DNA from: a virus
Lineage: Duplodnaviria > Caudoviricetes
IMG/VR virus record: IMGVR_UViG_3300049828_000304
Span: 1-27,549 of that record
Length of the DNA: 27,549 nucleotides
Reading direction: 5' to 3' (one strand)
Numbering within the stretch: position 1 is the first letter of the stretch; every line of letters begins with the position of its first letter. Both the position numbers and the translations under genes were made by a program. Shown piece after piece: positions 213-27,542 of this stretch. Below the pieces are notes generated by a model that did no database searches, was not told where the DNA came from, and was given only the letters and a program-made list of their open reading frames with translations.

Positions 213-213
213 T

Positions 214-1188: not shown

Positions 1189-1415
1189 AAACAACTAATA
1201 TTGTTGCAGGGTGTCACAACAAATGTAAGTCATCTTTAGTTTTACCACTAGCTGCGAAGGGAATAATTAGAGTTAGAAATGGGGATGACAAAGTCATAGT
1301 ACAAGCATCATCAGAAGATATTTTAAAAAACGATTGGAATGGAACCTGTGTCGTACTTGGAATTACGACTAAAGTTGACTCAGATAGCAACATTAAACTT
1401 AAACTGGTGAGGTAA
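1179..1415 (+). CDS. hypothetical protein, 78 aa
   Basis: AAGGGAG RBS, overlaps the upstream stop. Confidence 0.65.
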   Translation: MLIKTTNIVAGCHNKCKSSLVLPLAAKGIIRVRNGDDKVIVQASSEDILKNDWNGTCVVLGITTKVDSDSNIKLKLVR

Positions 1416-1418
1416 ACA

Positions 1419-1712
1419 ATGAAAGATTTTATTAACATTGGTAGCAGTCCAAGTGCAGAAGATTGCGTTCAACTAGGTACGGAAAATTACTCGCAAATAG
1501 CAAGAACAGAATGTAATAGATTAATAGCGTTATTGCGTAGAATACATGGTGATGAGCCAGAGGGCGCCAGTTTGAGAATAATGGGATTTAACCACGATTT
1601 TGGCAGATACTATGAGGTAGTCTGTCATTACGACACAGAAAAGCCAGAGAGTGAAGAGTACGCATTCAAATGCGAGAATTTACCAGATACTTGGGAGCCG
1701 GAAGTATGCTGA
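1419..1712 (+). CDS. hypothetical phage protein, 97 aa
   Basis: GAGGT RBS, protein-like composition, operon context. Confidence 0.75.
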   Translation: MKDFINIGSSPSAEDCVQLGTENYSQIARTECNRLIALLRRIHGDEPEGASLRIMGFNHDFGRYYEVVCHYDTEKPESEEYAFKCENLPDTWEPEVC

Positions 1713-4345
1713 AAACCGAAGCGGTAAAAAAATTCCTGCTTACAACAGGCAACAGACACCTAACCGATCTATACGAACCTTGCATGGAATTGCAAGTAAA
1801 TGTAGGTCAAGATGGTGGAACTCGAACAGGCGGAGTATACAATGGAGTGCATTGGTCAGGGTGGACAGACGGCACGAGTACATGGAAATCATTTCGTGTA
1901 CCGTGGGGAGCAGGGAACACGGAGTCAGTTAGCTATACTGACTCAGCCCTTAATTGGAATCTAGAAGACCATGCCGAGGGTATAGGTATGACTGGGTGGG
2001 ATTATGTTAATAGACAATCCCATTGGGTTGGATTCGATTTTGATTCTATAGCTAACCACAAGGTGGGGCTAAGTGTGGAAGAGCTAGAATCTATACGACT
2101 GCAAGTGACTCAGATTCCATGGGTAACACTTGTTAAGTCTACAAGTGGAAAGGGATTGCATATCTATGTACACCTTGACAATGCTGTTGGTATAGGTAAC
2201 CACGGTGAGCATGCCGCTCTAAGTAAGAGTATACTATGTCTGTTATCGCAGGAAACTGGATACAACTTCCAGGCCTCAGTAGATACATGTGGCGGTATTC
2301 TATGGGTATACCACAGAAAACAGGAGGGTACAGACGGTTTAGCTCTGCTAAAGCAAGGAGAGAAACTGAGTAAACTTCCGTCCAATTGGCGGGATTACAT
2401 CGAGGTAGCTCAGGGAAAGAAAAGGAAACTGAGTTACTCTAAGGAGTTTGAAACTCTAATACAGGGTATGAAACAACAAGAGTTAGATGCAGACCACAAG
2501 AGATTGCTTAAGTGGTTCTGCACATCGGCTGACAGGAGTAACTGGTGGGACAGTGAAAACAATATGCTAGTGTGCCACACATTAGACCTAGCCAAGGCTC
2601 ATAAGGAATTAAAACTTATGGGGTTCTTTGCAACTTCATCATCGGGTTCTAGCGACCAAAACTGTTTTTGTTTCCCGTCCCACGGCGGTTCTTGGATGGT
2701 ACGTAGGCACTCTTTAGGGGTTAAGGAACACCAGTCATGGGTGAGTGATCCGTCAGGGTGGACTAGGAGCGGTTTTAACGCCGTTCCAGAGTTTGAGTCA
2801 GCGGCTAAGAATTGCAAGGGCATCGAAAATATTAAAGGAGATTTCGTATTTTCTCAAGCTAGCGACGCCTTTGCCGCTTTATTAGCCCTGGGATTAACTC
2901 AGGTTTCGTGCCCCGAAGGATATGAGTCTAGACCTACTACTGTTGGTAGAAAGATAGAAAGGATACTAGTCAGACTAATGGCCTTTCCAAATGATAAGCC
3001 TCCAGAGGGGTACTTACTGAGTAAAAAAGAGGATCATTGGGAGGCAGTATTCACTCTGCCTCAAGTTAGGCGTGAGGTATACACCCCTGATAATCTTATA
3101 AGGCATATAATATGTAATAGTGCCGAGGCAGGTTGGTATATTCACGCTAGAGAGCGTTGGATAGAAGAAAATAGGCAAAACATCGTTACTGTTCTAAACG
3201 CTCAGGATAGTAAAAATGCACAGGAAATGATGTCTAAGTGTATCTTAAGTCCTTGGGAGATAGTAAACATTCCTTTTGAGAGCGAGTACCCAGGAAATAG
3301 GCAGTGGAATAAAGATTCCGCTAAGTTGGCTAAAAAGCCAGAGGAGGGTAACTTTTCTACTTGGATTGACTTACTATCACACATTGGGGCTAATCTTAAC
3401 TCAGATATTATAAAAGATAGGTGGTGCATAGGCAATGGAGTACGGGATGGCGGAGATTACTTACTCTTATGGGTTGCTAACATGTTTATGCGACCCTACG
3501 AACCGCTACCGTATCTATTCTTAACAGGGGAGCAAAACAGTGGTAAGAGTACGTTTCACGAAGCTCTGGAATTATTATTTCTAGACCGTAGGGGGTATGC
3601 TAGAGCGGACTTAGCTGTAGTTGAAAAATTTAATTCTCAGTTAGCAGGAGCAGTATTAGCAGTAATTGAGGAAACTGATTTAAGAAAAAATAAGGAGGCG
3701 TATAGCAAGATTAAGGATTGGGTTACTAGTAGGACAATAAGCATCAATACCAAATTCGTAAGTGTGTATGATGTTAAGAACACTCTTCACTTCATTCACT
3801 GCACTAACGACAGTAACTTTTGTCCTGTATTTCCTGGGGATACTAGGATAACAGCAATCTATGTAAATAGTATACCTGCTAGTAAAGAGATACCTAAGTT
3901 AAAGCTGTTGGAGAAACTAAATTCTGAGTCAGCCGCATTCCTACACCACATTCTTAATTTAGAATTGCCAGAGAGCGAAGGGCGTTTGAGCATACCTTGC
4001 ATTCATACAGATATTAAGTCTGAGATACAGCAAGGTAATATGACTGATTTAGAATTATTTATTGACGAGAAATGTTATGTAGTTAGAGGTAAGCAGTTGA
4101 ATTGGGACGAGTTCTATTGGGCTTTCATAGAATGGTTGCCGAGTGATAAAAAAGGGGCTTGGAGTACTAATAGAGCGGCTAGGGCTTTTCCTAAAAGAGT
4201 ACCGCTGTGCAAGGGTAAGATAGGCAGTGACAATATTACTGTTATTGGAAATCTGAGCCTAACGCAGGCAGTAGATGAACCGTATGAGTTATTTACAGAT
4301 GACAAAAACAGAATAGGAAGGAGAATGTATGCAAGCAGTAATTGA
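1706..4345 (+). CDS. primase-helicase fusion (AEP/prim-pol-like N-terminus + SF3/DUF5906-like helicase)
   Basis: WVGFDFD (DxD) and STSGKGLHIY AEP motifs; Walker A GEQNSGKST, Walker B AVIEE, motif C HCTN. Start moved from 1670 to ATG 1706 (GGGAG RBS, overlaps upstream stop). Confidence 0.85.
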   Translation: MLKTEAVKKFLLTTGNRHLTDLYEPCMELQVNVGQDGGTRTGGVYNGVHWSGWTDGTSTWKSFRVPWGAGNTESVSYTDSALNWNLEDHAEGIGMTGWDYVNRQSHWVGFDFDSIANHKVGLSVEELESIRLQVTQIPWVTLVKSTSGKGLHIYVHLDNAVGIGNHGEHAALSKSILCLLSQETGYNFQASVDTCGGILWVYHRKQEGTDGLALLKQGEKLSKLPSNWRDYIEVAQGKKRKLSYSKEFETLIQGMKQQELDADHKRLLKWFCTSADRSNWWDSENNMLVCHTLDLAKAHKELKLMGFFATSSSGSSDQNCFCFPSHGGSWMVRRHSLGVKEHQSWVSDPSGWTRSGFNAVPEFESAAKNCKGIENIKGDFVFSQASDAFAALLALGLTQVSCPEGYESRPTTVGRKIERILVRLMAFPNDKPPEGYLLSKKEDHWEAVFTLPQVRREVYTPDNLIRHIICNSAEAGWYIHARERWIEENRQNIVTVLNAQDSKNAQEMMSKCILSPWEIVNIPFESEYPGNRQWNKDSAKLAKKPEEGNFSTWIDLLSHIGANLNSDIIKDRWCIGNGVRDGGDYLLLWVANMFMRPYEPLPYLFLTGEQNSGKSTFHEALELLFLDRRGYARADLAVVEKFNSQLAGAVLAVIEETDLRKNKEAYSKIKDWVTSRTISINTKFVSVYDVKNTLHFIHCTNDSNFCPVFPGDTRITAIYVNSIPASKEIPKLKLLEKLNSESAAFLHHILNLELPESEGRLSIPCIHTDIKSEIQQGNMTDLELFIDEKCYVVRGKQLNWDEFYWAFIEWLPSDKKGAWSTNRAARAFPKRVPLCKGKIGSDNITVIGNLSLTQAVDEPYELFTDDKNRIGRRMYASSN

Positions 4346-4877
4346 CGTAGAAACAACCGGTCTAGTAAGGGGCGTAAATGAAATTATCGAAATTGCAGTT
4401 TTGCAATTTGACGATAACTTTGAGCTGACAGGAAATATATTTCATAGTTTGGTGAAACCTAATACTATGCCTACAGCCGAGGTTACGAAAATAAACAACA
4501 TAGGAATACCTGAGTTAACATTAGCCCCAACAGCATCGCAAGTTAGAAAGAGATTCGTAGAGTGGAAACTGGAAGTATTTGGGGAAGAGAGTATAGTTCC
4601 ACTTGGGCACAACTACGGATTCGATAAGGGATTCTTAGAGAATTTTTTCAAAGACTTGTACTTAGACCTGTTTCACTACCGAAATAGGGATAGTCAGCAG
4701 GCCGCAATATTTCTTAGAGATTGCGGAGTATTGACTGCTAGGTCTACTGGACTGGAAGCGTTAGCTGAACATTTTTCCTTGAAGAGTAAAGGGGATCTTC
4801 ATAGGGCGGTAAGTGACGCGGAAATGACGTTAGAGGTGTACAAAGAATTAATACTTTTACAAAAGGAGATCGTATGA
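4329..4877 (+). CDS. DEDDh 3'-5' exonuclease (DnaQ/epsilon-like)
   Basis: ExoI IDVETTG, ExoII HNYGFD, ExoIII HRAVSDA. Confidence 0.92.
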   Translation: MQAVIDVETTGLVRGVNEIIEIAVLQFDDNFELTGNIFHSLVKPNTMPTAEVTKINNIGIPELTLAPTASQVRKRFVEWKLEVFGEESIVPLGHNYGFDKGFLENFFKDLYLDLFHYRNRDSQQAAIFLRDCGVLTARSTGLEALAEHFSLKSKGDLHRAVSDAEMTLEVYKELILLQKEIV

Positions 4878-5107: not shown

Positions 5108-5114
5108 CACCTAC

Positions 5115-5157
5115 ACTCAGGTCACAGCAATGTGGCCTGAGTTAACTTTAGGACTAA
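5115..5157 (+). promoter_or_regulatory. 12-bp stem GCAA-tetraloop hairpin fused to a motif copy
   Basis: ACTCAGGTCACA-GCAA-TGTGGCCTGAGT (5115-5142, one G-U pair); the right arm overlaps motif copy 5137-5157. Confidence 0.6.
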
Positions 5158-5159
5158 AC

Positions 5160-5200: not shown

Positions 5201-7355
5201 AGTTAAAGTGTAAGAATGAGTAAACTATACCATTACCAGTACGTTCCGCCATTGCGTGACCTACCTCACGGAAATGTATTGTATCAACTGGCACTGTAGA
5301 TAAACCCTCCACAGTCCCGGCAGTGGTACTGCCTGTTACGAGTACTTGACCTCTGGAAACATTTCCATATGAATTTACATAAGAATAACCAGTAATCCGT
5401 ACACGCACATACTCACCCGCAGATGCCGCATTTTGAGCCACACCTACCGGCATTGATTGGCCATCTCCACTTGTTGGGCAAGCCCGTACACGATAGTTTG
5501 CACTTGTGCCAAGAGCTGTAACAATGTCATACTGGTTTATTGTTCCGTCAGCTGTTAATGTAAGATCGTTTCCGTAAGTGCTTATTTGATCGTAATGATC
5601 AGCAGTAGTAGAGTACGTTGTTCTAATTAATACACCAGCATTACTTGCTGATATTTCTGTTATTGGATACCCGTCACTCGCTCGCAAGCTTATTGATGGC
5701 GTTGCCGATGTACTTGTACCTGTGATATCAATACCTGATTGCGATATAGATATAACTGGAGACGTTGCTACAGTTAAACTGCTTATAGTTAAACCACTAT
5801 AACTAAGCGTTAAATTTGGCGTATTATCACTTGACATCAATGTAATAATTGGAGTTGTTGAATTGCTCGTAGATTTTAAAGTTAAATCACCATTACCATA
5901 TAGTTTAAGTGTTGAACTGCTCCAATTACTTACTCTTAATAGCGGGTCTGTATCTGCAAGTATAGTGCCATTTATACCAGATAAAATACTAACTCCAGTA
6001 TTGCCCGTACCAGTAGCCAAATCATTAGTAGTAAGTGATCCAGTAGCATCAATAGAAAATGATGTATATGGCCCTGTACCTATATTCAAACTTATACTTG
6101 CAGTTGGAGAACTTGACGCATTAGAATACAAATTTAATTCTGGCCCACCAGAGGTGGCAATATTGTCTACCCGCAGTAAATCAGAAGAAAAATTAAATGC
6201 TCCATCGCTACCAATTGTCAACCTGTCTGTAGGAGTAAAACTACCTGATTTTGTTGTTGAGAATATTAATGATCCAGGTGTGCTACTTCCCGAGGCTGTC
6301 GCTGTTGTTTTTGATTGTATACGGGCAATAGTACGTTGCATATCAGTACCATTAGCGGCACAAAATTCTATCATTCCAACCGCGTCACCAGATTGTACAG
6401 CTCCATTTCCGCCTACGCTTCCACTCGAAGATGCACCTAAATACAATGCAGATGGGAATCCGTTTGAATCGTTATTTATAACGCCTATTGACGCATATCC
6501 TATTTGAGTTCCCTCGACGTGCAATGATGACCCATATGATGTAGTAGCGTCTCCGCCCATATATCTACGTGCTGAAGCGGTGCCAACATATGTCGTGCCA
6601 TCTCCATCAATCCCAAATCTACGAACACTGTTATTAAAAATAGAGTATATCTTGCTTGCATTACCAATACTGGTCTTACTGCCTACGCTCTGCATGGCAA
6701 CATTTATTGCCAAACCTGAGTCACCTGTAGTGCTAGTATTGTAGTAGTCATGAGTTACAGTACCGTTAGCAATATTTTTAGTGTGTCCTAGTGATTGCAT
6801 TAAGAAAGATTCGTTCCTAATAAGGCCGAAGGCCGTTCGTTCGTTTGCAGTACGTGTTCCAGATTCCAAAGCTATAGAGGTAAAACCTGATGTATCTGGA
6901 CTAACAATACTAATAGGTGCTAGCGGCACCGTAGCGGTTGTGCCACTATCCCAGATAGAGTTAGCCCTTACCTTGCTGTCCCCATTTATCTCCAGAGGGA
7001 ATGAAGGATTGCTCATTCCGAAACCTAGACCTAGACCTGAATTTGTAAAATAGGCTCTAGCGACTCCTGCGGGGGAAATGCTTAGACTCGTTGCTCCTAT
7101 ACTGATCTGTGCTGTGCCAGACTGGGATTTAATTTTTTCTATGTACAAATCTTTAAACCAGTTGTCTTCGTAAATCCAAGCACTACCATTCCAGTATTTT
7201 TGATTGGCAGTTACGTGTAAACGAGGCGTACCCTGGCTATCTTTGTAGCACCAATTTCTACTTCCATCGGTATCTATGCCTCTCATTTGCGCTTCAAGAT
7301 TAGCAATCAAATTTGACATAGTATCAACTTTACTGTAAATTTTCTTGTCAGCCAT
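5199..7355 (-). CDS. tail fibre / receptor-binding protein, 718 aa
   Basis: Last gene of the tail operon; Gly/Ser/Thr-rich beta-repeat shaft (RLTIGSDG, RFGIDGDG, PGSLIFST); C-terminal GVAQNAASAGEYVRVRITG domain. Confidence 0.75.
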   Translation of the reverse strand: MADKKIYSKVDTMSNLIANLEAQMRGIDTDGSRNWCYKDSQGTPRLHVTANQKYWNGSAWIYEDNWFKDLYIEKIKSQSGTAQISIGATSLSISPAGVARAYFTNSGLGLGFGMSNPSFPLEINGDSKVRANSIWDSGTTATVPLAPISIVSPDTSGFTSIALESGTRTANERTAFGLIRNESFLMQSLGHTKNIANGTVTHDYYNTSTTGDSGLAINVAMQSVGSKTSIGNASKIYSIFNNSVRRFGIDGDGTTYVGTASARRYMGGDATTSYGSSLHVEGTQIGYASIGVINNDSNGFPSALYLGASSSGSVGGNGAVQSGDAVGMIEFCAANGTDMQRTIARIQSKTTATASGSSTPGSLIFSTTKSGSFTPTDRLTIGSDGAFNFSSDLLRVDNIATSGGPELNLYSNASSSPTASISLNIGTGPYTSFSIDATGSLTTNDLATGTGNTGVSILSGINGTILADTDPLLRVSNWSSSTLKLYGNGDLTLKSTSNSTTPIITLMSSDNTPNLTLSYSGLTISSLTVATSPVISISQSGIDITGTSTSATPSISLRASDGYPITEISASNAGVLIRTTYSTTADHYDQISTYGNDLTLTADGTINQYDIVTALGTSANYRVRACPTSGDGQSMPVGVAQNAASAGEYVRVRITGYSYVNSYGNVSRGQVLVTGSTTAGTVEGLSTVPVDTIHFREVGHAMAERTGNGIVYSFLHFN

Positions 7356-8318
7356 TTAACTTACCTCCTGCACGGTATCCGTGCCAGTTGTTACTTCCTG
7401 CCAGTCACCCGACGGATTACTGGAATATTCTTCATAAATATCGCCCTCAATCTCATCACCACGAAATTCCAATAACTTAAGGGTAGTAGTCATTCGTGAT
7501 ACTGATACCTTTTTCCCTACCACTAGGTAAGTGTTACCAGATGTGTGCCTTACCGTATTGGAGTCAATATCTACCCAATCTCCAATATTCCTAACATACT
7601 CTGTTATGGGTAGTGTAATAGTAAGAGTTCTTCTTGGCCGAGCGTAATAAAGGGCTATATTTCTAGCCAATATACGACCGTATGTTACATCTATGATATA
7701 CTTCAGTTTCAGATTAACTTGTTTCTTTAGCCCTACTGTTAACTCAGGCTCTGCTACATATGAACTAGATATAAAATAAGCATTCTCCTTAGCAGGATTT
7801 TCAAAGGCTTGAAAATAAACATCTGTCACAACGTTATTCAGTGAACTTATTTCTTCACCCCAATCTGTACGACCATTAGAAAGTACCAAATCTGAGTCAA
7901 GATAAGTCCTGATAGATGCCTGAGGGAAAGAATCTGTTAGCCTAAGACTTCCACTTGGGGACTCTGATAGTATTATACCAGTCTGCAAGCAAATATTATT
8001 TATAATATCTCTGTATAGTAACTCCTTTTTCTCACATACTCTTATAGACCAGGAAGCTCTGGATACTTGCATACTGGCAAAACTACCAGTATCAATATTA
8101 GTATATCCTAAACCACGTCTAAGTAAGTCCTCTATTATCTGCACTGGTGAGGTAAGGGTAGCGCCTTCAACGGCTGAGGCCATGCCCGCAGGGGCTAACC
8201 TACCCTTACCAGTAAAAAATACAGCTGTGCCTGAGCTAGAATCTATTGTGAAATCTATTAGAAATTCAGGATTCTGCAAATAGGCAAAGCTACCACTATA
8301 ACTGTTATAATCAGCCAT
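7356..8318 (-). CDS. tail tip / baseplate-hub-like protein, 320 aa
   Basis: Position after TMP/Dit; SPVQIIEDLL, IINNICLQT and IGDWVDID patterns typical of hub proteins; AAGGAG RBS. Confidence 0.6.
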   Translation of the reverse strand: MADYNSYSGSFAYLQNPEFLIDFTIDSSSGTAVFFTGKGRLAPAGMASAVEGATLTSPVQIIEDLLRRGLGYTNIDTGSFASMQVSRASWSIRVCEKKELLYRDIINNICLQTGIILSESPSGSLRLTDSFPQASIRTYLDSDLVLSNGRTDWGEEISSLNNVVTDVYFQAFENPAKENAYFISSSYVAEPELTVGLKKQVNLKLKYIIDVTYGRILARNIALYYARPRRTLTITLPITEYVRNIGDWVDIDSNTVRHTSGNTYLVVGKKVSVSRMTTTLKLLEFRGDEIEGDIYEEYSSNPSGDWQEVTTGTDTVQEVS

Positions 8319-11163
8319 TCCATTCTCCTTGATAGGTTAGTACCCATCTGGTAGTGTTCAAATCCTTCAAATTATTGCCTAGGCAGTAACCATCTCCCGC
8401 CTCGCCAAATTTAACACCTGCTATAAATTTGCCAGTTGGTATACCTTCCCAGTCCATCTTTTGAAAGAAATATGGGTCTTCACCACCTGCTCTAACTATT
8501 GGTAGCAGGAAACATTTCCCCCCAGAGGTAAAATTGATTGCTACACCCCTAGTTGACGCGTATCCTGTCCACTTAAGTTTCATACCTGTGACTTTGGCGT
8601 CAAGATTGACGGTAGGAAATACAACATCCAGTAGATAACAGAAGTACCTTCTATACACATCTGATGCCTCATAGCTGTCAGAATACGCGGGTCGAGAAGA
8701 AAAATTAACCGTTATCTCAGTAACACTACTACCAGTGAATACTGGTGATACTGTAGCCACGGGCCAATTATTAGTTGCCATGTACGGCCCACCAGTATTT
8801 CGTAATTCATTGAACATGCTGTAGTGGCCGTTGGCGACATTAATAGGCAGTAAACTAAGAGACCCAGTGAACTTATTAGATGGTTTGACCGTAGTAGTAT
8901 CTGAATTAGTAGTATCTATTCTGTACACAGCAGACCCGTCAGGATGCTCGGCAGCCACAGAATTATTTATCCCTCTCCGTACTAGGTATGAAGAATGGGT
9001 GTCATTAAATTCTACACTCACCTCCTGAGTTATTTCAAGGTACTCGTCGTCTATTTTGATTATAGTAGTAGGTACTTTAATAGAGCTAGTATGGTCACTA
9101 GAATTTACAAAGTCATCATTAGGGACTAGGAAATCAAATGCTCGGTAAGGCAAAGATACATAGTCAGCAGTTATTATCAGTTCTTCCAATATCTGTATAT
9201 CTTCATCCGATGTGGGATAAGCTACTAGATACATCCTACCAGAAGCAGGGATATATCTGAAATTCTCTGCACATTGAAGAATAAATACATGATTACCAGA
9301 ACCATCTGGCCCTTCATACCTAACATAGTTATCCTGATTATTTGGTCTGTAGTATACATAATCACCCTCTGGCCCCTCATAGATTAATCCATCTGGGTAA
9401 CCATCTATGAATACGTACCACTCTCCTACGTCAAATACAGTTGATGACTGTACTCTTATTTTATACGGATTATACAAGTATAAAAGACGGCTATCAGAGT
9501 AAGTAATCCCCACAGTTTCCAATTCCGGTATTACCTCTTCGGCAGTAACTATTCCGTTACTAGAACTAAGCGAGGATGAATATACAGGGGTAAACGCATC
9601 AGAACTTTCATCATATATAGCCGCCCCTGTTACTTCGCCTATGCCAAGAAAATCAACCACAAGCCTACCCAAATCATCAATCTCGCTAGGCATAGCCGCT
9701 GTAGCATCATAAATAGGATAACTACCATAACATATTCTACCTTCAGTACTAGCATCACTAAGAGAATTAAAACTACTGCGAAGTATCAGAACCAAATTAT
9801 CTCTACTCTTATTTAATTCTGATATTTGCCCAGAAAATATAACCCCTCCATTTACATCTGTCAAACCTGAGTTAACATTAAGCCTAATAGTTGCGATACG
9901 CCCAATAAGTCTGTCCATGCGAATATCAGAATCTAAATCCTGAAGAGTAAGAGTCATTTCACTGGTATCAGCAATCCCACCAAGACCAGATATGGAGTAT
10001 GTACCATTCATTGCAGGTTCGCCAATTTTAAACTCTTGATCGTAGTTATCAATAGACACTAATCTATCCGACAGTAAGTTACTAGATACTACTGCATCTA
10101 TCTCAGTAGTATTACCAAGAATAAAACCGGTATACCCACTACAGGTTGCACTCCCAAATGGAGATGTATCTACTGTATCCCATTCCCCCACAGTTGTCGG
10201 AGTCAATACTACTGATACAGAGTATCCTGGCTTTGGCAGTCCTTCCGCCCGCAGTAAAGTACCATTGGTAGTGGTAGAACCGTATATACTACCGCTGTAG
10301 GAAATAACTTTACTTATCAAAGTTTCTGAGTTTAGCTGAGTGCATATTTTTATCCAACCTGTTTGTGAAGAATTCAGCTTAAAAAGGAAGGCATTATTTC
10401 CCGTACCGCCGTACAGTGACCCTCCGTACTCTACTAATGATGCTATTTCTATTTGAGAATCTGTTTGTGAGCATACGAGTTCCCAGGCATTCTTGCCGGA
10501 ATTGAGTCTAAGAAGCCTACCACTGTTGTAAGAAGTTCCGTATAGCCTATCTTGGTACACTATCAGGGAGCTAATAGAATAATCATCTAAGTACGATTCA
10601 GCCACTAGTTCCCAGGCATCCTCTGTTGAGTTAAGCCGAAATAAATATCCACCGTCGGCTCCATTATATGTCCCTGCGTATAGCACTCCTTCATATACAC
10701 ACAACGCAGTTATTGTAGCTTGAAAGTCCAATTGACTACAAACTAGTTCCCAGGAATTACCTGCAAGGTTAAGCCTCTGTAAATTTCCAAGCGAACCTGT
10801 ACCACCATATAGCCTAGAATTATACTCGCACAACGCACTTACTTGTCTTTGATCATTTATGCTATTAGATACTAAGTCCCAACCATTCTTACTTGAGTTA
10901 AGACTTAACAGTTTGCCGCCATTATTTAGACTATTCCTATACGTGCCTGCATATAATTTATTGTTATACACAAGCAGACTTAGTATTCTAGTTTGACTAG
11001 AATACTGTGCGCAAACTTGTTCCCAGGCATCGCCACTGGAGTTTAATCTATATAGACGACCGCCTTGGCCAGTTCCTGCATAGAGTATCCCTTCAAATTC
11101 ACACATGGCATATATAACACTCTCAGAACCTAACTTGCCTGCTACCTGTACCCAATTTGACAT
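8311..11163 (-). CDS. large tail-tip protein with N-terminal 7-repeat beta-propeller, 950 aa
   Basis: Seven 43-48 aa repeats (WExV...I.AL..Y.G.LY.GT...G.L.RLNS), then hub-like segment (GGVIFSGQI) and a KIDDEYL...VRRG.NNS.AAEH motif. Confidence 0.7.
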   Translation of the reverse strand: MSNWVQVAGKLGSESVIYAMCEFEGILYAGTGQGGRLYRLNSSGDAWEQVCAQYSSQTRILSLLVYNNKLYAGTYRNSLNNGGKLLSLNSSKNGWDLVSNSINDQRQVSALCEYNSRLYGGTGSLGNLQRLNLAGNSWELVCSQLDFQATITALCVYEGVLYAGTYNGADGGYLFRLNSTEDAWELVAESYLDDYSISSLIVYQDRLYGTSYNSGRLLRLNSGKNAWELVCSQTDSQIEIASLVEYGGSLYGGTGNNAFLFKLNSSQTGWIKICTQLNSETLISKVISYSGSIYGSTTTNGTLLRAEGLPKPGYSVSVVLTPTTVGEWDTVDTSPFGSATCSGYTGFILGNTTEIDAVVSSNLLSDRLVSIDNYDQEFKIGEPAMNGTYSISGLGGIADTSEMTLTLQDLDSDIRMDRLIGRIATIRLNVNSGLTDVNGGVIFSGQISELNKSRDNLVLILRSSFNSLSDASTEGRICYGSYPIYDATAAMPSEIDDLGRLVVDFLGIGEVTGAAIYDESSDAFTPVYSSSLSSSNGIVTAEEVIPELETVGITYSDSRLLYLYNPYKIRVQSSTVFDVGEWYVFIDGYPDGLIYEGPEGDYVYYRPNNQDNYVRYEGPDGSGNHVFILQCAENFRYIPASGRMYLVAYPTSDEDIQILEELIITADYVSLPYRAFDFLVPNDDFVNSSDHTSSIKVPTTIIKIDDEYLEITQEVSVEFNDTHSSYLVRRGINNSVAAEHPDGSAVYRIDTTNSDTTTVKPSNKFTGSLSLLPINVANGHYSMFNELRNTGGPYMATNNWPVATVSPVFTGSSVTEITVNFSSRPAYSDSYEASDVYRRYFCYLLDVVFPTVNLDAKVTGMKLKWTGYASTRGVAINFTSGGKCFLLPIVRAGGEDPYFFQKMDWEGIPTGKFIAGVKFGEAGDGYCLGNNLKDLNTTRWVLTYQGEWNG

Positions 11164-11168: not shown

Positions 11169-11573
11169 TTAGCTCCTTCTAAATCTGTAAGGTATTTTAA
11201 CATCGTAATTTCCTGGAGCAACAAAAGAAAACATATCTTTAGTAGATGGATCTGAGTCAACATTAGCCGTAACAGCTACATTCTTACCGTTCCCCAAATC
11301 CAGATTAACCACTGCCCCAATTGTAAATGCGTATTTACTAAAAATAATATTATCTTTAATAAATGTTTTTAAACTCTCTCCGTGAGTGTAGGACACGCCT
11401 TTCATAACTAAGATACCATGACAGACAGTAACGCCAGAATCAAAAGTAACCAAACCGCCATCTGCGGTTTGGAGACTTATTTGATTGATTCTTTCATCCC
11501 ACCAATCGGTACCGTATACAACAGAAGCACTTATGGTACATGTAGTACCGTAAGTAAAAGATACATTAATCAT
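11169..11573 (-). CDS. putative distal tail (Dit-like) protein, 134 aa
   Basis: Immediately follows the tape measure gene with ATGA overlap; beta-rich; assignment by synteny only. Confidence 0.55.
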   Translation of the reverse strand: MINVSFTYGTTCTISASVVYGTDWWDERINQISLQTADGGLVTFDSGVTVCHGILVMKGVSYTHGESLKTFIKDNIIFSKYAFTIGAVVNLDLGNGKNVAVTANVDSDPSTKDMFSFVAPGNYDVKIPYRFRRS

Positions 11574-14443
11574 CTTGACAACTCCTTCTTAATGTAAGGC
11601 AGTAATTCCCTGGCCTGTTCTCTCGTCCCAACGAAATTATCAATGCGCACTACTACAGAACTACTTGTAGTATAAGTATTGCCTCTATCAATCATTTGAT
11701 TCAATCTTTCATTCCCACCTATAGCATTTATCTCACTCTCTGCCAATACACGCTCTCCCTTACTTACATAAGCGAGATTGCTGTCACTGGTGCTATTGCC
11801 CTCTGGAAATCCGCCATGGCGGAAATTTTGAGATTGAATAACTAAGGCCTGAGTTGTACCCATAGCTCCGGCAGATATAGCGGCGGCAATCTTAGCATAG
11901 ATAGGGCCATCGGTAGCAAGAAACGCATCCATTGACATTCTTACAGCGTTAATATGCGCCATAATACCCGCTATTCTCTGCTGTTTCTTGGCAAAGGCTG
12001 TATTCTCTTTCTCCGTCTTTTGCCTTAAAGCCTCTTGTGCTCTCTGAAATTTCTCTTCTGCCATAGCTTTCTTAATAGCATTGCTACCGGCTGCAATTGA
12101 CTCAGCATTGTATCGTTTTTCAATTGCAGATTGCTCGTCATAGATTCTCTTCATAGTTTCATTGTGTTGAATCTCCTGTATATTCATTACAGTATTAGCA
12201 GTATTTTCAGTTAGTGCTATGGTGTTATCAGTTGCGTTCTTATACTTCTCAGTCTCTTTCTGCCATATCTTGTCAAAATCTGCTTGGTCTTTTTTCCATA
12301 GAGCAAGTCTCTTAGTGAAATCCTTATCCGATTCAAATGCACCTTGTGCCCCTGCGTACTTAGAATTGACTCGTAGAGGCCCTACAACAGTATTGGAAGA
12401 AGTGTTAGCTATCTCTTCATAAGTCTTTTGTAGCTCCTTATATATTTCATACTGGGCGAGTAACTCTTCAGTATCTTCCTTTTGAACAGCAAGTATTTTT
12501 AGATGTATTGCATAATTTTGTTCCATCAAATCATTTTCAAGTTTATCTAGTTCTATACTAGCTTTTTTCAGACTTTCTCTTTCCTTAGCTATTTTTACAA
12601 GTTCTTTATCGGCCGCCTCTTTCCTCTTAGCCATCATATCGGAATATCTTTTTCCTACTTCTGAGTCAATAATAGGGCTAACAGATGGGTACGGTTCTAA
12701 GGCAGCAATAGAAGGTCTCAACTTCTCTCTGATATAGTCAGCCATTCCTTGTAAGCCGTCGGCGGAGACATCAGGAAATTCCCCACCAGATTTCTTTTTC
12801 CAGTCCTTTTTTATCTTATCCAATTCTTTAAGATGTTCCCTATAAGCCCTTTCCTTTTTGCCGAAAGCATCCAAACTTGCTGCTAGTGACACTAAACTAG
12901 TATTATCAGACCGCATAGCATCTAGGGCTTTTTTCTCTTCCTCTAAAGCCTTTTTTAACTTGGCTACCTTTTCATAAGCGGCGGCATGCTCTAAATTGTT
13001 ATAGCCATCATTAAACTTTTGTTGCGATTCAATAGTTTGGTCTATTGCCTTTTTAACCTTAATGTACTCAGCAGCGAGTGCTACGAGTAAAGCAGTTACA
13101 AGTATTATCTCAGGCGCGGTCAATCCGATAACAACTTTTGCAGCTACTATAGCTTTGGCGAAATTAGCTATGCCAACAGCACTAAGACTTAGCCAATTTA
13201 CAAAACTACCGGTCGCAAGTAAACCAACTACCACAGCTACTTCTTTAAGATGAGCAGCCATATACTCAAGAACAGGAAGAGCCGTTTCTGCCATAAGTTT
13301 AAAGGCAGTGACTAAATCTGTAAAGAATTTCTGTATACTCACTTTATTAGCTATAATATATTTGCCAAAACTTTCTACATAGCCTTTAAGAGATTCAATA
13401 GCCGTTTGCTTTTCAGTTCCGAATGCCTCAAATATGCTTATACCAAGAGCTTGAAAACTATTCTTAACCATAGCCAGTTGGTCTGTAAAGCTTTTACGGA
13501 TTAACTCTGCCTGCTCTTTTGCAGTCATTCCAGAACCGTTTATTATATCCATGAACTTCCCGACTTCGTCGGTATTCTTACTTATCGCCAAGGCACTGTT
13601 AATAGCTCTTTTATCCACTAAAGCCAGTAACTCTTCTACCTTAATGCCTGCGCCTTCCATTTGACCGAGAACCTGAGTTAACGTTAGGCCTTCAAAATTC
13701 ATGCCCTCAAGAGCCTTAGCCGCTTTACTAGTAGGCGCGAGCATATTAAGCATCATATTACGGAGGGAAGTACCTGCCAGAGAGCCCTCAATACCACGTT
13801 GAGAAAGTAATGCGAGTAAAGCACTAGTTTCTTCTAAATTTGTATTAAGAGGATCAGCAACCGAAGCTACATATTTCATAGCTTCCATATAACTCTCTAA
13901 AGACAACTTACTAGCATTTAACGTTCTTGTGTATACATTAGCTACTCTTTCGCTTTCCTCAAAACCGATACCGTATGACATCATTGTATTTATCATACCC
14001 TTAGTAGTGTATAATAAATCCTCCCCTGCGGCAGTAGCTACATTTAATGTATTGGGTAGCATCTTCCATATCTGATCTGCACTCATACCGGCCTTACTCA
14101 TTTCGAGCATAGCTCCGGCAATTGCGGAGGCAGAAAATTCAGTTGTCTTACTTAACTCTATGGCCTGTTTACTATATTTAGCCATGCCTTCAGAACTGGT
14201 ATTAGTGATAGCCCCCATAGAAACTATTGCTTTTTCAAACTTCAATGTTTCGTCGGTACACATCTTAAGAGAATTAATAATAGCATTAAGGCCTTTATAA
14301 GCGGCAGTTGCGGCAAAAGTAAGATTCAAAGTTTGACCGAGAGAAGCTACACTCTTATTAGTCTGTTTTGTAAGAGTTTCAAAGGCGGCTATCCTTGGGG
14401 TAGCCTTATCGTCTACATCTATCTTAACGAGAAGAGTTGGCAT
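11570..14443 (-). CDS. tail tape measure protein (TP901-family core), 957 aa
   Basis: TEFSAS.IA.AM.EMSKAG and GIEGSLAGTSLRNM core, hydrophobic segments, coiled coils; follows the chaperone genes. Confidence 0.95.
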   Translation of the reverse strand: MPTLLVKIDVDDKATPRIAAFETLTKQTNKSVASLGQTLNLTFAATAAYKGLNAIINSLKMCTDETLKFEKAIVSMGAITNTSSEGMAKYSKQAIELSKTTEFSASAIAGAMLEMSKAGMSADQIWKMLPNTLNVATAAGEDLLYTTKGMINTMMSYGIGFEESERVANVYTRTLNASKLSLESYMEAMKYVASVADPLNTNLEETSALLALLSQRGIEGSLAGTSLRNMMLNMLAPTSKAAKALEGMNFEGLTLTQVLGQMEGAGIKVEELLALVDKRAINSALAISKNTDEVGKFMDIINGSGMTAKEQAELIRKSFTDQLAMVKNSFQALGISIFEAFGTEKQTAIESLKGYVESFGKYIIANKVSIQKFFTDLVTAFKLMAETALPVLEYMAAHLKEVAVVVGLLATGSFVNWLSLSAVGIANFAKAIVAAKVVIGLTAPEIILVTALLVALAAEYIKVKKAIDQTIESQQKFNDGYNNLEHAAAYEKVAKLKKALEEEKKALDAMRSDNTSLVSLAASLDAFGKKERAYREHLKELDKIKKDWKKKSGGEFPDVSADGLQGMADYIREKLRPSIAALEPYPSVSPIIDSEVGKRYSDMMAKRKEAADKELVKIAKERESLKKASIELDKLENDLMEQNYAIHLKILAVQKEDTEELLAQYEIYKELQKTYEEIANTSSNTVVGPLRVNSKYAGAQGAFESDKDFTKRLALWKKDQADFDKIWQKETEKYKNATDNTIALTENTANTVMNIQEIQHNETMKRIYDEQSAIEKRYNAESIAAGSNAIKKAMAEEKFQRAQEALRQKTEKENTAFAKKQQRIAGIMAHINAVRMSMDAFLATDGPIYAKIAAAISAGAMGTTQALVIQSQNFRHGGFPEGNSTSDSNLAYVSKGERVLAESEINAIGGNERLNQMIDRGNTYTTSSSVVVRIDNFVGTREQARELLPYIKKELSR

Positions 14444-16562: not shown

Positions 16563-16591
16563 ATTATAAATATTCTTAGTCCTAATGTTAA
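16563..16591 (-). promoter_or_regulatory. candidate sigma70-type promoter TTAACA-N17-TATAAT
   Basis: -35 TTAACA (16586-16591) lies inside motif copy 16576-16596; perfect -10 at 16563-16568; RBS 16550-16554 just downstream. Confidence 0.55.
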
Positions 16592-16623
16592 CTCAGGTCA
16601 ATCTGAGTTAACATTAGGCGTAA
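16576..16623. repeat. back-to-back inverted pair of the 21-bp motif
   Basis: TTAGTCCTAATGTTAACTCAG-GTCAAT-CTGAGTTAACATTAGGCGTAA. Confidence 0.92.
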
Positions 16624-18149: not shown

Positions 18150-18697
18150 CCTAAAGTCCTATCTACTGAAGTAGCAGTTGTTTTTCTCAGTGTAAGTATA
18201 TCATCGCCAGTTCTATTCTTATACGTCACTGAATCATCTGAATTATATACACGAGAGCCAGTCATTTTTGCCATTAACAAACTCAAAATCTGAGTAAACG
18301 TTAGGCCTTCTATCGTCGTACTACTTCCTATCATAGTTAGGTCAGATTTTACTCCTACTCCAGACATAGCCGTAGCACCGCCACCTACTACTTTTCCAGG
18401 CAGGTCGTTAGTTGTTACAATATGTATTGTTTCCGGTATTACATTTGGGAGCGTAGTTATAGGTAGTATTACTATATTACTAGCAGTCATTTCCGAATCT
18501 GTTAATACTATCTTATACACTCCAGATGCTGTACTATTGGCTAATAGTAACTCAGATACATTATTGGTGGTAACTGCAAACTGACCACCGTCTTTGCTTA
18601 CCTGCACAGTTATATTTGCCGAACTACTAGTAACAGCTACTCCAGAAGAGTTTCTTATTGAAAATGTAAAAGATGTTGATTTAGCGTATTCTGCCAT
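18146..18697 (-). CDS. virion structural protein, beta-sandwich-like, about 183 aa
   Basis: VSKDGGQF..TTN..SE...GVY..VLT.SEM pattern; start moved to ATG 18697 (AGGGAG RBS). Confidence 0.55.
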   Translation of the reverse strand: MAEYAKSTSFTFSIRNSSGVAVTSSSANITVQVSKDGGQFAVTTNNVSELLLANSTASGVYKIVLTDSEMTASNIVILPITTLPNVIPETIHIVTTNDLPGKVVGGGATAMSGVGVKSDLTMIGSSTTIEGLTFTQILSLLMAKMTGSRVYNSDDSVTYKNRTGDDILTLRKTTATSVDRTLG

Positions 18698-18877: not shown

Positions 18878-18898
18878 CTGAGTTAACATTAGTCCTAC
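18878..18898 (+). repeat. junction copy of 21-bp motif
   Basis: CTGAGTTAACATTAGTCCTAC; overlaps the TAG stop (18895-18897) of the upstream - strand gene. Confidence 0.88.
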
Positions 18899-21371: not shown

Positions 21372-21956
21372 TTAGAGCTCCATGTCTGAGTTAACATTAG
21401 GACTAACTAACACATATAATTTTGATTTACTTTTAAAATAGTTTGATAACTCCAACGGATTCGGTGCAACAGGGCAATCTGAGTCAACAAAAGTCCTAAG
21501 AATGTCTGCAACATTTTCAGTGCAAAAATCGCCCTTAGCGTTGTTCTTAAACCACGGCATTTTACCAAACAATTTTCGACCCAACGGGCTACTCAAAATT
21601 GCACCTTGTAAATCATAATTCTTTTGCTCTCTACGGAGGTACGACAGTCGCTGTCTTGCGCCCATGCGTATATACCCGTCATCGAATCCTACGCATCGCC
21701 ATACTTGTACAATTTGCTCTCTTGTACCTGCGTACTTTTCAAGGCTATTTTCCTGCAAGTGCAAGCCCATTTCAGTTGCGAAAAACTGACCGTAGTTCTC
21801 CGTTATAAATCCACCGTGTGTCGGGGTGGTATCGTCTTTCGGAGCAAATTTCATCGTTTCGGCAATCCGAATAATCCGGCCAAAAGGCTTATTACTGTGA
21901 GATAGAAATATATCCATATCACGGAACGATTTATAATCTATTGTTGTTTTTTTCAT
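21372..21956 (-). CDS. permuted papain-like NlpC/P60 (YiiX/YebB-like) amidase/peptidase, 194 aa
   Basis: DIFL...IR...THGG (His) precedes YD...FCTE (Cys): permuted catalytic order. Confidence 0.75.
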   Translation of the reverse strand: MKKTTIDYKSFRDMDIFLSHSNKPFGRIIRIAETMKFAPKDDTTPTHGGFITENYGQFFATEMGLHLQENSLEKYAGTREQIVQVWRCVGFDDGYIRMGARQRLSYLRREQKNYDLQGAILSSPLGRKLFGKMPWFKNNAKGDFCTENVADILRTFVDSDCPVAPNPLELSNYFKSKSKLYVLVSPNVNSDMEL

Positions 21957-21964: not shown

Positions 21965-21985
21965 CTGAGTTAATATTAGGGCTAA
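21965..21985 (+). repeat. junction copy of 21-bp motif
   Basis: CTGAGTTAATATTAGGGCTAA; on the - strand it supplies the TAG stop of the 21982 gene and begins the CAGGAG RBS of 21956. Confidence 0.9.
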
Positions 21986-22691: not shown

Positions 22692-22712
22692 CTGAGTCAA
22701 CATTAGGACTAA
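22692..22712 (+). repeat. junction copy of 21-bp motif
   Basis: CTGAGTCAACATTAGGACTAA, intergenic after the capsid gene. Confidence 0.92.
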
Positions 22713-23758: not shown

Positions 23759-23779
23759 CTGAGTTAACATTAGGACTAA
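23759..23779 (+). repeat. junction copy of 21-bp motif
   Basis: CTGAGTTAACATTAGGACTAA, 3 nt after the stop of the 23783 gene; identical to copies 21386 and 16576. Confidence 0.92.
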
Positions 23780-24655: not shown

Positions 24656-25129
24656 TTACTGCCTAACGGCAGCTTTATATTGTGAATTAAACAAATCCGC
24701 AAACTCTTTCTTTGCATACATCCAGGCGGTGCCTTTAGAACATGAATACTTCTTTTTGCAAAAATCCATAGCCTCTTCTTTGGTTCTAACATCTTGAGTA
24801 TCCAGTTCACTACCAGTAGCACTACCTGCTGTTTGTGGAGCTGTAGAAGTGAAGGCTAATGCTAACTCAGCTTTGTAACTACTTGCCTTATCAAGGACTG
24901 TAGCTACTATCTCGTTAGCGTCCTTACACGTTCCAGTAAGTTCTTCCACTGTAACATCAAGAGACTTTGCAACTGCTTCAAGAGTATCATTATTTAGGGC
25001 TAATGTTGACTCAGGTTCGGCAACCGTTGGAACAACAGATGCCGCACCTGCCGAGAATATCTCGTCATAAGCGGCTTTATTGTGTTCCTTAATCTGGTCA
25101 ACCGATGCTTTCTTAAGAAAAATAAACAT
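24656..25129 (-). CDS. putative capsid scaffolding protein, 157 aa
   Basis: Acidic Ala/Glu-rich helical protein directly after the protease; AAAGGAG RBS. Confidence 0.6.
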   Translation of the reverse strand: MFIFLKKASVDQIKEHNKAAYDEIFSAGAASVVPTVAEPESTLALNNDTLEAVAKSLDVTVEELTGTCKDANEIVATVLDKASSYKAELALAFTSTAPQTAGSATGSELDTQDVRTKEEAMDFCKKKYSCSKGTAWMYAKKEFADLFNSQYKAAVRQ

Positions 25130-25186
25130 TCCAGACTCCTTTCGCTCGCCAGTGGCGGCAGTTATTAAATTATAATTAAATTATAA

Positions 25187-25984
25187 TTAGATTATTAGGT
25201 CTTTCATAGTTGCTATTTCGTCTATAAGACCGAGTTCCTTAGCTTTGCTAGCCATAAATACTTTGCCATCTGCCCAAACGCTAATATCTGAGTTAACATT
25301 AGGCCTATTAGACTGTACCGCCTTAGTAAACTCATTATAGATACTGTCTACTTGTTCTTGCAAGTATTCAATGCCCATTTCAGTCATCGGAGTATTGGGA
25401 TTACCTATAGCTTTGTATTTGCCCGCTGATATTACGTGTACTTTTAATCCCATAGCATCGTTTATCATAGACTGATCTACTACAGACAAGTAAACTCCTA
25501 TACTGCCAACTAAGTCTGTATTGCTACTAGCAACAATAGCACTACATTGACTAGCTAACCAGTATGCGGCAGAACAACATTCCCCGCTTATAAAGCCAAT
25601 GGTTTCTTTGGAACTGTTTCTAATGGCATTCGCAAATTCCTGTATGCCACTGACTGAACCACCTGGGCTATCAAACTGCAAAACTATTCTAGCTACAGAG
25701 GCATCGGATTGCAAAGCCTCGAATGATTTGGTTAAATCAGTTATAGTTTGCATACCAGACATAGATTCTAAGCCGTAGGTTTTCTTTAAAAGAGTACCCT
25801 CGATTGGCAGAATACCAGTGCTAGCTATCACTACTGAACCTGAGTTAACTTTAGGGCTATCGGTGGTCGGATAAGAGCCAGACATTTTACTAAGTAATAT
25901 GGCATTGAATAGTTCTAATTTATCCTTGCGAATTAACCAAGGTTGTCCACTTACGGTTTCAAGCAATAGATTACCAGTTACCAT
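25187..25984 (-). CDS. head maturation protease, S49/SppA (lambda gpC-like), about 265 aa
   Basis: FDSPGGSV, CSAAYWLAS, VGSIGV, AGKYK, GLIDEI motifs. Start moved to ATG 25984 (GGAGG RBS). Confidence 0.93.
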   Translation of the reverse strand: MVTGNLLLETVSGQPWLIRKDKLELFNAILLSKMSGSYPTTDSPKVNSGSVVIASTGILPIEGTLLKKTYGLESMSGMQTITDLTKSFEALQSDASVARIVLQFDSPGGSVSGIQEFANAIRNSSKETIGFISGECCSAAYWLASQCSAIVASSNTDLVGSIGVYLSVVDQSMINDAMGLKVHVISAGKYKAIGNPNTPMTEMGIEYLQEQVDSIYNEFTKAVQSNRPNVNSDISVWADGKVFMASKAKELGLIDEIATMKDLII

Positions 25985-27542
25985 CTTCTTTCCTCCTTTC
26001 TTTTTTGTCATCTTCGCTTATATCACCATCTTCAACTGATTCCCCAGGTCTTGTTTTAGGCTTATAATCCCCACCCTTGGCGCCGGCGGCGTCAGCGTCA
26101 GCGGCCGTTTCTGGAAACACAAGTCCTTTCTTTTCATACTCTTGCCTCTTGGAAATCAACTCAGCCTGTTCTTCAAGAGCTAAGTTAGCTTCTTCGTTGA
26201 TTTCTTCCATCACTTCATCGTAGTCGTTGCCCTCTTCCTCAACTAGCATCCTACGACTCTTAGTTTTGTTATTCAATGCCAACTTGCTAGCCCTGCCTTC
26301 CTTCTCTGGGTCAAGCATACCAAGTGACGGCCACCGAATTGTAATTGAGACGTCTTTCACATTTCCAGAAACTAAATTCTTAAGTACAGCTTCTTCTATC
26401 ATAGTATCAGTTATCCAAGTAATAACTGAGTCAACTTTACGCCTCCAACGAGTTATGAAGCGTTTAGTCTCCAGAACTGCCCCTCTCCAACTACTGTAGT
26501 TCACCTCAGCGGTGTCTAAAAATAGAATCGGATAAGGTATACGAACATAGGCAGAAACTATTTTAAGAAGTCTTACAATAAAAGCGTCAGTATTGTCCCC
26601 AGGTTTGTTGGGACTAGCCATACTAACGTCTTCTCCTGGCCGCATATATGTTATCTGGCCAGGTTGCAATTTGCTAGCCCTCTGCCCTGACGTTGGGTCA
26701 GATACTGAATCGCCATTATTATAATCAGTAGTCATTGTAGCCAATGCTTTTCCTGGGTTATTTGTCTTTACAAATACAGAAAAGCAGGCAGCAACGCGTG
26801 CTCCTACTACAGTAGCTTCAATAAAATCACCAAGTTGTTTCAGAAAATGAATCGCCGGTGTGATTACTGGAAACTGTCTGCTACTCTTTGGCCTGCTGTT
26901 TAACGGAGCTTTAAATAATTGAGTAACTTTTCTTCTGTACATAGTCCCGTCAGCGAGTGTAACCGACTTATAACACGGAAAAAACGTGAAATTGTTGCTT
27001 GAATCGCCTTCATAATCCACTTTATCAGCATTTTTTACCCAATATCCTTTCACCTTACCTGATACCTCATACTCTACGCCCAAACGAATTTGTTTATTCC
27101 ACAATAAATCATTTGGAGTCTTAATTCTCTGAGCTTCTACCAACTCTACAACTGTTTGGATGCCCTCACGGTCTGTATCAATCGGTAGCGAAATAAGAAT
27201 ATCGCCGTCGGAGAAGCTCCAAGCGACGATTTGTTCTATTAGGTCTACAATTGACTCAGATTCTGTGATGTCTAAGGATTCAAGATTGATTAATTCGTTT
27301 AATTTACGAGTCTGCAAATCATTTTTGCCGTAAATCTTAATAGCAGGATAGCCAATAATTGTAATATAAGACTGCTGTATAGCCGCAGCTACACAGTTGT
27401 CTTTTATTAATTGCCTACTAAGCAATCTCAACTGCTTAAGAGTATTGCTATTATTCAAATCATAGTCAGGAGAAGTCTCAGTACCTATCGGCCAAGATAG
27501 AGTCTGAGCGTTACTTCTCGCCGCTGAAAAGGTTGATGCCAT
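25971..27542 (-). CDS. portal protein, lambda family, 523 aa
   Basis: LR..SR.L..DN, DGD.L, GVE....G...GYW, NYSS.R and DPEKE motifs; upstream of the S49 protease. Confidence 0.93.
   Translation of the reverse strand: MASTFSAARSNAQTLSWPIGTETSPDYDLNNSNTLKQLRLLSRQLIKDNCVAAAIQQSYITIIGYPAIKIYGKNDLQTRKLNELINLESLDITESESIVDLIEQIVAWSFSDGDILISLPIDTDREGIQTVVELVEAQRIKTPNDLLWNKQIRLGVEYEVSGKVKGYWVKNADKVDYEGDSSNNFTFFPCYKSVTLADGTMYRRKVTQLFKAPLNSRPKSSRQFPVITPAIHFLKQLGDFIEATVVGARVAACFSVFVKTNNPGKALATMTTDYNNGDSVSDPTSGQRASKLQPGQITYMRPGEDVSMASPNKPGDNTDAFIVRLLKIVSAYVRIPYPILFLDTAEVNYSSWRGAVLETKRFITRWRRKVDSVITWITDTMIEEAVLKNLVSGNVKDVSITIRWPSLGMLDPEKEGRASKLALNNKTKSRRMLVEEEGNDYDEVMEEINEEANLALEEQAELISKRQEYEKKGLVFPETAADADAAGAKGGDYKPKTRPGESVEDGDISEDDKKERRKEDGNW

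Follow-up and report, generated by a model that had tools for sequence, protein, structure and literature searches.

We analysed a 27,549-nucleotide stretch of an uncultured tailed phage (Caudoviricetes; IMG/VR record IMGVR_UViG_3300049828_000304), hereafter the window, which comprises a short left arm with primase-helicase and exonuclease genes and a right arm running from portal to tail fibre. This 27.5-kb piece carries 36 copies of a 21-base word, CTGAGTYAACWTTAGSNCTAA, at a mean spacing of about 750 bases (Table 1). Copies were called with an iterated weight matrix at a cut-off of 11 bits, the matrix being trained on these same copies; 24 lie on the plus strand and 12 on the minus strand, and positions 1–6 and 8 are invariant. 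Counted on both strands, CTGAGT alone occurs 50 times against 12 expected. The motif lacks symmetry, with its best dyad centred away from the core, and a TTAG-NN-CTAA dyad recurs downstream of the core (10 versus 1.2 expected). A structured RNA was rejected on the basis of zero Rfam matches and a dyad showing no compensatory change (P = 0.69).

A sequence-only reading of this DNA had proposed that the motif is written into protein-coding sequence in several frames and on both strands. All 19 peptides that it named are found at their positions and in their frames, the host proteins are those it had recognized (primase-helicase, exonuclease, tape measure, S49 protease and lambda-type portal), and eight intragenic copies can be added to its list (2093, 2366, 2429, 6716, 15797, 18535, 18878 and 24850). 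Altogether 27 of the 36 copies lie wholly within open reading frames (ORFs), against a mean of 4.4 and a maximum of 10 in 200 synonymous-codon shuffles that preserved the proteins. Of the six frames of the consensus, three are interrupted by stop codons and three stay open, hence the three classes of peptide. We rejected an in-frame insertion element, as there is no seven-residue insertion at the portal sites or at most others, where gaps fall in variable regions.

That selection acts on the DNA itself is borne out by the synonymous shuffles, by the lineage specificity of the peptides and by low synonymous divergence within the motifs of relatives. At the 12 sites with homologues (a thirteenth had none), no identical homologous 8-mer was found, and the portal and primase alignment columns agree. 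Because the window has no close relative in the collections searched, synonymous conservation was measured between two of its relatives that are approximately 92% identical: fourfold-degenerate sites differ at 9 of 158 positions in motifs and at 963 of 5269 elsewhere (P = 7.5e-6). The same pair has 67 of 75 covered motif sites in common, despite a fourfold-site divergence of 18%.

The further claim that this selection bends essential proteins was overstated and finds weak support. When the window was compared with 63 portal and 117 primase homologues (50 motif columns, 1309 others), motif columns proved more variable than the rest (0.34 versus 0.47, P = 6e-4), and well-conserved columns depart in the window at one of eight positions in motifs and at 53 of 468 elsewhere. 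Matched for variability, window residues at motif columns are marginally more unusual (P = 0.056). The single clear forced change is portal V370 (motif 26426..26446), a valine in 0 of 63 homologues where 54 have leucine, while the invariant residues inside motifs, portal W366 and primase G561, are retained. Across 26 contigs and five replication proteins, departures at columns conserved at 90% or more number 16 of 190 in motifs and 465 of 10549 elsewhere (P = 0.013); the effect of the motif on protein sequence across the family is small but present. A DNA signal with one site per kilobase can thus sit within coding sequence at little cost to the proteins.

Placement at poorly conserved residues matches what Findlay and Redfield described for uptake sequences (PMC2817400). 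The analogy with uptake sequences drawn in the sequence-only reading holds for the evolutionary pattern and fails for the reader, which is likely to be a phage protein and not a host uptake system. The same pattern (orientation-blind, even, in poorly conserved residues and split into dialects; PMC2817400) would also arise from a drive without benefit to the phage, in which recombination, repair or packaging favours word-bearing fragments, as proposed for uptake sequences. Such a drive names no reader, and it sits poorly both with the retention of 67 of 75 sites between the diverged relatives and with a helix-to-base covariation, described below, that indicates a sequence-specific helix-turn-helix (HTH) protein; we regard it as quite improbable.

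Intergenic copies lie nearest the consensus and intragenic ones are looser, as had been noticed from the sequence: the nine junction copies average 31.3 bits and the 27 intragenic ones 25.2 bits (leave-one-out scores, P = 0.009). Junction copies are also over-represented (7 versus 1.6 expected) and stand 8–37 nucleotides 5′ of start codons, and several relatives show an enrichment of sites between divergent parB and primase genes. Together with the ability of KorB to silence genes at a distance from its OB sites (PMC11790492), these features would suit operators bound by a repressor or roadblock that acts on particular genes, in the manner of KorB or of stoperators, with even coverage as a by-product, and this account is compatible with the same ParB-type reader that we favour below. 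It has to contend with the 27 of 36 copies that are intragenic, with copy densities that are about equal in the early and late arms, with a lack of polarity relative to transcription (9 sense and 18 antisense intragenic copies, 5 and 4 at junctions) that differs from stoperators (PMC9283540), and with the absence of any tyrosine integrase match in 14 records, and we consider it unlikely.

Relatives were gathered by portal, primase and polymerase alignments, a portal scan with a single protein having yielded none. No cultured phage is close (portal below 28% identity, primase partial only). Exact and degenerate pattern scans of IMG/VR for the window's word found no other carrier, and the window matrix has one match on the related loci of at least 4 kb (85 of 104). 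What the lineages have are dialects with a common core (TGAGTYA, TGGGTCG, TGGGTYAC, TGGATYA and TAGGT), among them TGGGTCG in G001 (78 copies in 48 kb), TGGATYACTT in G004, CTAGGT in G005, TGGGTYACTTGAA in G010 and TGGGTTAA in G041, and most contigs of the family carry one site per 0.3–1.3 kb. Several contigs from the window's clade have a site that amounts to a degenerate 16-bp palindrome, with the best dyad centre at 8.5. Sister-clade sites are 14–15-bp palindromes such as TGATT-N4/5-AATCA and TGAGTTA-N-TAACTCA, and the G022 half-site, TGAGTTA, is the core of the window's word. With repeats masked during motif discovery (G012, G016, G024 and G030 contain them), a short palindrome is enriched (-log10 p >5) in 20 of 22 ParB-bearing sister-clade contigs and in 0 of 14 distant portal loci, the latter being shorter than the sister-clade contigs.

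G022 and the sister clade (L219–L222) have the same primase–ParB–helicase–PolA module as the window's clade, joined to a P22-type head in the former and to a lambda-type head in the latter. Motif distance tracks the proteins of this module (r 0.42–0.60) and not virion proteins (about 0 to 0.2). Mantel tests on whole proteins gave 0.60 for ParB, 0.57 for the exonuclease and 0.52 for the primase, with partial correlations of 0.42 for the exonuclease and 0.30 for ParB, and so did not single out ParB. Three relatives bear additional features. L022 has, at 6785–6855, seven overlapping copies of its own word, direct and inverted, in an iteron-like cluster, and G001 (L105–L107) carries a second repeated word, similar to TCACTTTGTAAA, in approximately 25 copies. 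The 208-kb record G003 (L117–L122, L130–L134), with two terminase genes and a GC step near 23 kb, is probably a chimeric assembly; its motif is confined to the first 22 kb, it has no ParB, and it was left aside.

Pooled over both strands, sites are spaced more evenly than at random in five of six contigs of the window's clade (combined P = 4e-10), the window among them (coefficient of variation 0.70, P = 0.022) and G041 being the exception; gaps below 250 bp fall short of expectation in these five, and sites are dispersed and evenly spread, not clustered. This regularity belongs to the pooled strands, as shuffling of strand labels causes no loss of order in the window (P = 0.47), G001, G004 or G010, which argues against the word being a single-strand start signal for the phage primase-helicase, priming on either template strand. 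Such priming would fit the additional order within single strands that G041 (P = 0.005) and G005 (P = 0.032; combined P = 0.06) display, the resemblance of the word core to the NrS-1 primase-polymerase (prim-pol) site TTTGGTTA (PMC8718748), the match of the window's 879-amino-acid primase-helicase to the C-terminal region of a solved phage primase (E = 6e-7) and the correlation between motif and primase distances (r = 0.52). It fits neither the 14–15-bp palindromes of the sister clade nor the 21-bp length of the motif, and 18 PolA loci of the family that lack a second ParB have no palindrome; we hold it to be improbable.

Dialects could also track host lineages, as they would if a host protein read the word, be it an uptake receptor, a Chi-like nuclease control or a nucleoid protein. 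In the one cellular bin tested, which holds a relative and need not be its host, the 48-kb phage contig accounts for 54 of 65 matches and the remaining 5 Mb for 11, the control having 13; the motif is not a trait of this bin. The window's pattern has just two isolated matches in GTDB genomes, and in the sister clade the motif tracks the helix of a phage protein, all of which renders a host reader very improbable.

The candidate reader comes from the relatives. Among 36 records, selected mainly for their length from 80 primase loci plus one portal locus, 29 have a ParB-like match, 28 of them strong. The first ParB-like gene lies upstream of the primase gene and is usually divergent from it; the proteins contain ParB_N and HTH_ParB domains above Pfam cut-offs, and their nearest solved folds are Noc, ParB and KorB. 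A search for ParA (PF13614) was negative in all 14 records examined, six of which have terminal repeats, with a positive control in 14 of 14. The GxxR motif, which is the nucleotide-binding motif of the ParB-CTPase fold (PMC12704722), reads GSRR or GLHR in paralogue 1, GFRR or GHRR in paralogue 2, and GGHR and GMQR in distal proteins, while the glutamate of the EN motif is replaced by alanine or glycine in paralogue 1. The second paralogue is carried by the sister clade. In the window's clade the first paralogue is present in seven contigs, and G005 and G006 have a further ParB-like gene, highly diverged, at the distal end of the early operon, the G006 product giving a weak, below-cut-off match to the KorB domain (E = 0.01). 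Two scans for further window-clade contigs that reach this distal gene returned known contigs only.

Five helix positions were chosen from generic HTH contact positions once the alignment had been seen. In the sister clade (n = 19), these positions of the second paralogue (173/174/177/178/181, numbered after PMC7383237) track the motif with r = 0.61 (partial 0.50) and the half-site with r = 0.72 (partial 0.65); none of 600 random five-column sets reaches the helix correlation, and the best single column is position 177. The first paralogue was rejected as the reader, its helix showing no covariation with the motif; the top 6 of 622 windows fall in its N-terminal domain. A held-out set of 45 loci (47 less 2 under 12 kb), some of them near duplicates and with kinship only partly removed, has palindromes at 15 of 27 loci with the second paralogue and at 0 of 18 without it (P = 6e-5). 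Within this set W175 together with Q177 pairs with a GAT palindrome (13 of 15 versus 1 of 12). Glycine or proline at position 173 accompanies GATA (G030, L325, L330 and L351), and in L343 and L363, which have a close first paralogue and an altered second helix, the palindrome is lost or changed. On this sequence evidence, recognition-helix residues of one paralogue track the site sequence in the sister clade.

We therefore favour, as reasonably probable, a DNA-level signal that is likely to be the loading site of a phage-encoded HTH protein of the ParB/Noc/KorB type, which would cover the whole replicating genome. A reader of this type is the best inference because the half-site TGAGTTA (in the window and G022) and the replication module are common to both clades. 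The window's phage would carry the same ParB-like genes to the left of the contig end, and the reader in its clade may be the second, rapidly diverging ParB-like protein of G005 and G006; it is predicted to bind a TGRGTYA half-site, to which the downstream TTAG-NN-CTAA dyad would be a lineage-specific extension. A dimer would bind each site on double-stranded DNA and presumably spread from it as a nucleotide-gated sliding clamp, as ParB-family proteins do (PMC11790492), such that sites every 0.7 kb would give continuous cover. Its purpose may be to organize or shield the phage DNA as a whole, not to control single genes. New sites would become fixed in gaps that have opened, at places where the encoded protein can accommodate them, which would account for their permissive placement and for the scarcity of short gaps.

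Several observations weigh against this proposal. No parB gene is present within the 27.5 kb of the window; in this phage the parB region would lie beyond the contig's left end. The evidence that names a reader comes from the sister clade, whose virion module differs and whose sites are palindromic, whereas the window motif is asymmetric, with its dyad off the core and without compensatory change. No orthologue of the covarying second paralogue was found in the seven contigs of the window's clade; the conserved first paralogue, which is the only ParB-like protein seen in most of that clade, shows no correlation between its reading head and the motif (r = 0.11, P = 0.83). The distal proteins of G005 and G006 are not alike by BLAST, and no distal gene was seen in G004 or G010. 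G002 and G017 have only short enriched words, G032 has both ParB-like proteins yet no motif, and a palindrome is missing from 12 of the 27 held-out loci that encode the second paralogue. The late choice of helix positions, the near duplicates among the held-out loci and the per-strand order of G041 and G005 count on the same side.

A broader scenario, which we put forward tentatively and would not expect to hold in full, is that of a large, uncultured lytic-type phage family in which an orphan pair of ParB clamps and a self-specific grid of sites every 0.3–1.3 kb build a phage nucleoid that, by coating own-dialect DNA alone, separates it from that of host and competitors. Protein and word would co-evolve strongly enough to leave a legible residue-to-base code, and in the window's clade a palindrome would have given way to an asymmetric bipartite site, with two different modules reading it. 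If the genome is coated in this way, a phage of approximately 70 kb would organize or mark its DNA with neither a shell nor modified bases. Since the sites can be read from genomes, dozens of natural protein–site pairs that differ in helix and word would form a specificity series for the ParB/Noc family. Phages often encode orphan ParB-fold proteins, most of which have no known site or role, and the survey of the ParB-CTPase fold covers such phage orphans without sites (PMC12704722). We found no description of this kind of system in the literature on dispersed phage motifs and phage ParB proteins with sites, subscription papers and supplements being outside its scope.

Some features of the window stand beside these results. 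The motif copies at 16576–16623 form a head-to-head pair with a 6-bp gap between two tail genes, and similar inverted pairs occur in L017 (14559/14569) and G004 (18639/18648). The longest copy-free gap (18899–21385, 2.5 kb) spans a gene of 731 amino acids without homologue in four long relatives, possibly a recent acquisition. ORF 21372–21956, whose last codons are a perfect copy, may have been extended through a former junction copy. A terminator-like hairpin of 16 pairs (5160–5197) follows the copy at 5137..5157, in the interval that separates the convergent arms. A single sequencing run, X1, contains the window, and no RNA data set was listed as containing it. Other contigs of this run align to the window only as far as the edges of motif copies (3410, 5156, 7910, 11269, 13691 and 25287), so the same word is present on further DNA of that sample, which is either the rest of the window's genome or a sister phage; none of these contigs extends the window's left end, and the listed variant positions include none inside motifs, with coverage too patchy for a count. 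An 18-bp tandem repeat at 655–978 encodes a YdcK-type beta-solenoid hexapeptide protein. Sigma-70 promoters in window positions 1–6000 were discarded as being at chance level (11 found versus 15.6 expected).

Table 1 Copies of the 21-base word in the window, and the gene that links it to relatives
Feature	Coordinates	Strand	Setting
Motif copy	369..389	+	Gene junction, 9 nt 5′ of start codon
Motif copy	642..662	+	Gene junction, 10 nt 5′ of start codon
Motif copy	1363..1383	-	ORF 1179-1415, peptide ITTKVDSD
Motif copy	2093..2113	-	Primase-helicase, peptide IRLQVTQ
Weak motif copy	2366..2386	+	Primase-helicase, 17.8 bits
Weak motif copy	2429..2449	+	Primase-helicase, 16.8 bits
Motif copy	2882..2902	-	Primase-helicase, peptide LALGLTQ
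Motif copy	3384..3404	-	Primase-helicase, peptide IGANLNSD
Motif copy	4510..4530	+	Exonuclease, peptide PELTLAPT
Motif copy	5137..5157	+	Between convergent arms, adjoins terminator-like hairpin 5160-5197
Motif copy	6716..6736	+	Tail-fibre-like gene, peptide TSTTGDSG
Motif copy	7727..7747	-	ORF 7356-8318, peptide PELTVGLK
Motif copy	7892..7912	+	ORF 7356-8318, peptide IRTYLDSD
Motif copy	9867..9887	+	ORF 8311-11163, peptide IRLNVNSG
Motif copy	11252..11272	+	ORF 11169-11573, peptide VTANVDSD
Motif copy	12661..12681	+	Tape measure gene, peptide VSPIIDSE
Motif copy	13673..13693	+	Tape measure gene, peptide EGLTLTQ
Motif copy	14525..14545	-	ORF 14424-14765, peptide PELPVGLK
Motif copy	15180..15200	-	Gene junction, 10 nt 5′ of start codon
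Motif copy	15797..15817	+	ORF 15204-16538, peptide FSLKSDSG
Perfect motif copy	16576..16596	-	Left half of head-to-head pair
Motif copy	16603..16623	+	Right half of head-to-head pair
Motif copy	18290..18310	+	ORF ending at 18146, peptide EGLTFTQ
Weak motif copy	18535..18555	-	Peptide SELLLANS, 18.8 bits
Motif copy	18878..18898	+	Small ORF 18681-18905, peptide SRTNVNSD
Perfect motif copy	21386..21406	+	3′ end of ORF 21372-21956, peptide VSPNVNSD
Motif copy	21479..21499	+	ORF 21372-21956, peptide LRTFVDSD
Motif copy	21965..21985	+	Gene junction, antisense
Motif copy	22692..22712	+	Gene junction, antisense
Perfect motif copy	23759..23779	+	Upstream of major capsid gene, antisense
Weak motif copy	24850..24870	-	ORF 24656-25129, peptide AELALAFT, 18.2 bits
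Motif copy	24994..25014	-	ORF 24656-25129, peptide PESTLALN
Motif copy	25288..25308	+	S49 protease, peptide NRPNVNSD
Motif copy	25840..25860	+	S49 protease, peptide DSPKVNSG
Motif copy	26426..26446	+	Portal, peptide WRRKVDSV, contains V370
Motif copy	27239..27259	-	Portal, peptide SESIVDLI
Primase-helicase gene	1706..4345	+	Marker that connects the window with the relatives' ParB-bearing replication module; also the reader in the priming account

Among known systems, ParB–parS partition includes dispersed centromeres on plasmid prophages such as N15. It resembles the present case in the ParB_N plus HTH architecture found in relatives and in the palindromic 14–16-bp sites of the sister clade, and differs in that here 14 records lack ParA, the sites are dispersed and not clustered near an origin, and the phages encode their own polymerase, helicase and ligase. 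Plasmid RK2 carries about 12 OB sites. Its KorB is, as proposed for the phage reader, a ParB-family sliding clamp on a mobile element, with dispersed sites near to and far from promoters (PMC11790492), whereas the phage sites are far denser, three quarters of them are intragenic, and the 14 records have no ParA match.

The uptake sequences of Pasteurellaceae and Neisseriaceae are also written into genes, where they use open frames and poorly conserved residues, and they too occur in both orientations and in dialects (PMC2817400), but they are spread over cell genomes, whereas this word sits on a phage genome and would be read inside the cell by a protein of the phage. The stoperators of cluster A mycobacteriophages likewise number more than 20 asymmetric sites on a phage genome and are read by a phage HTH protein, as we propose here; their orientation follows transcription and they occupy short intergenic spaces, unlike the non-polar, mostly intragenic copies of the window (PMC9283540). 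Sites of the NrS-1 prim-pol type are read on one strand (PMC8718748), while the window has no extra per-strand order (P = 0.47) and two of six contigs do.

Noc of Bacillus subtilis and its binding sites (NBS) parallel the present case in involving a ParB-family HTH protein without a ParA role, and a few helix residues set specificity (PMC7383237), as appears to hold for paralogue 2 of the sister clade. NBS are also spread across the whole replicon, and the first ParB-like protein of one relative has Noc as its best fold match. Noc is a chromosomal gene of Firmicutes, however, while the genes described here are viral and come as two paralogues; the phage words have no sequence likeness to parS or NBS, the sites of the window's clade are asymmetric, and they recur every 0.3–1.3 kb in most contigs.

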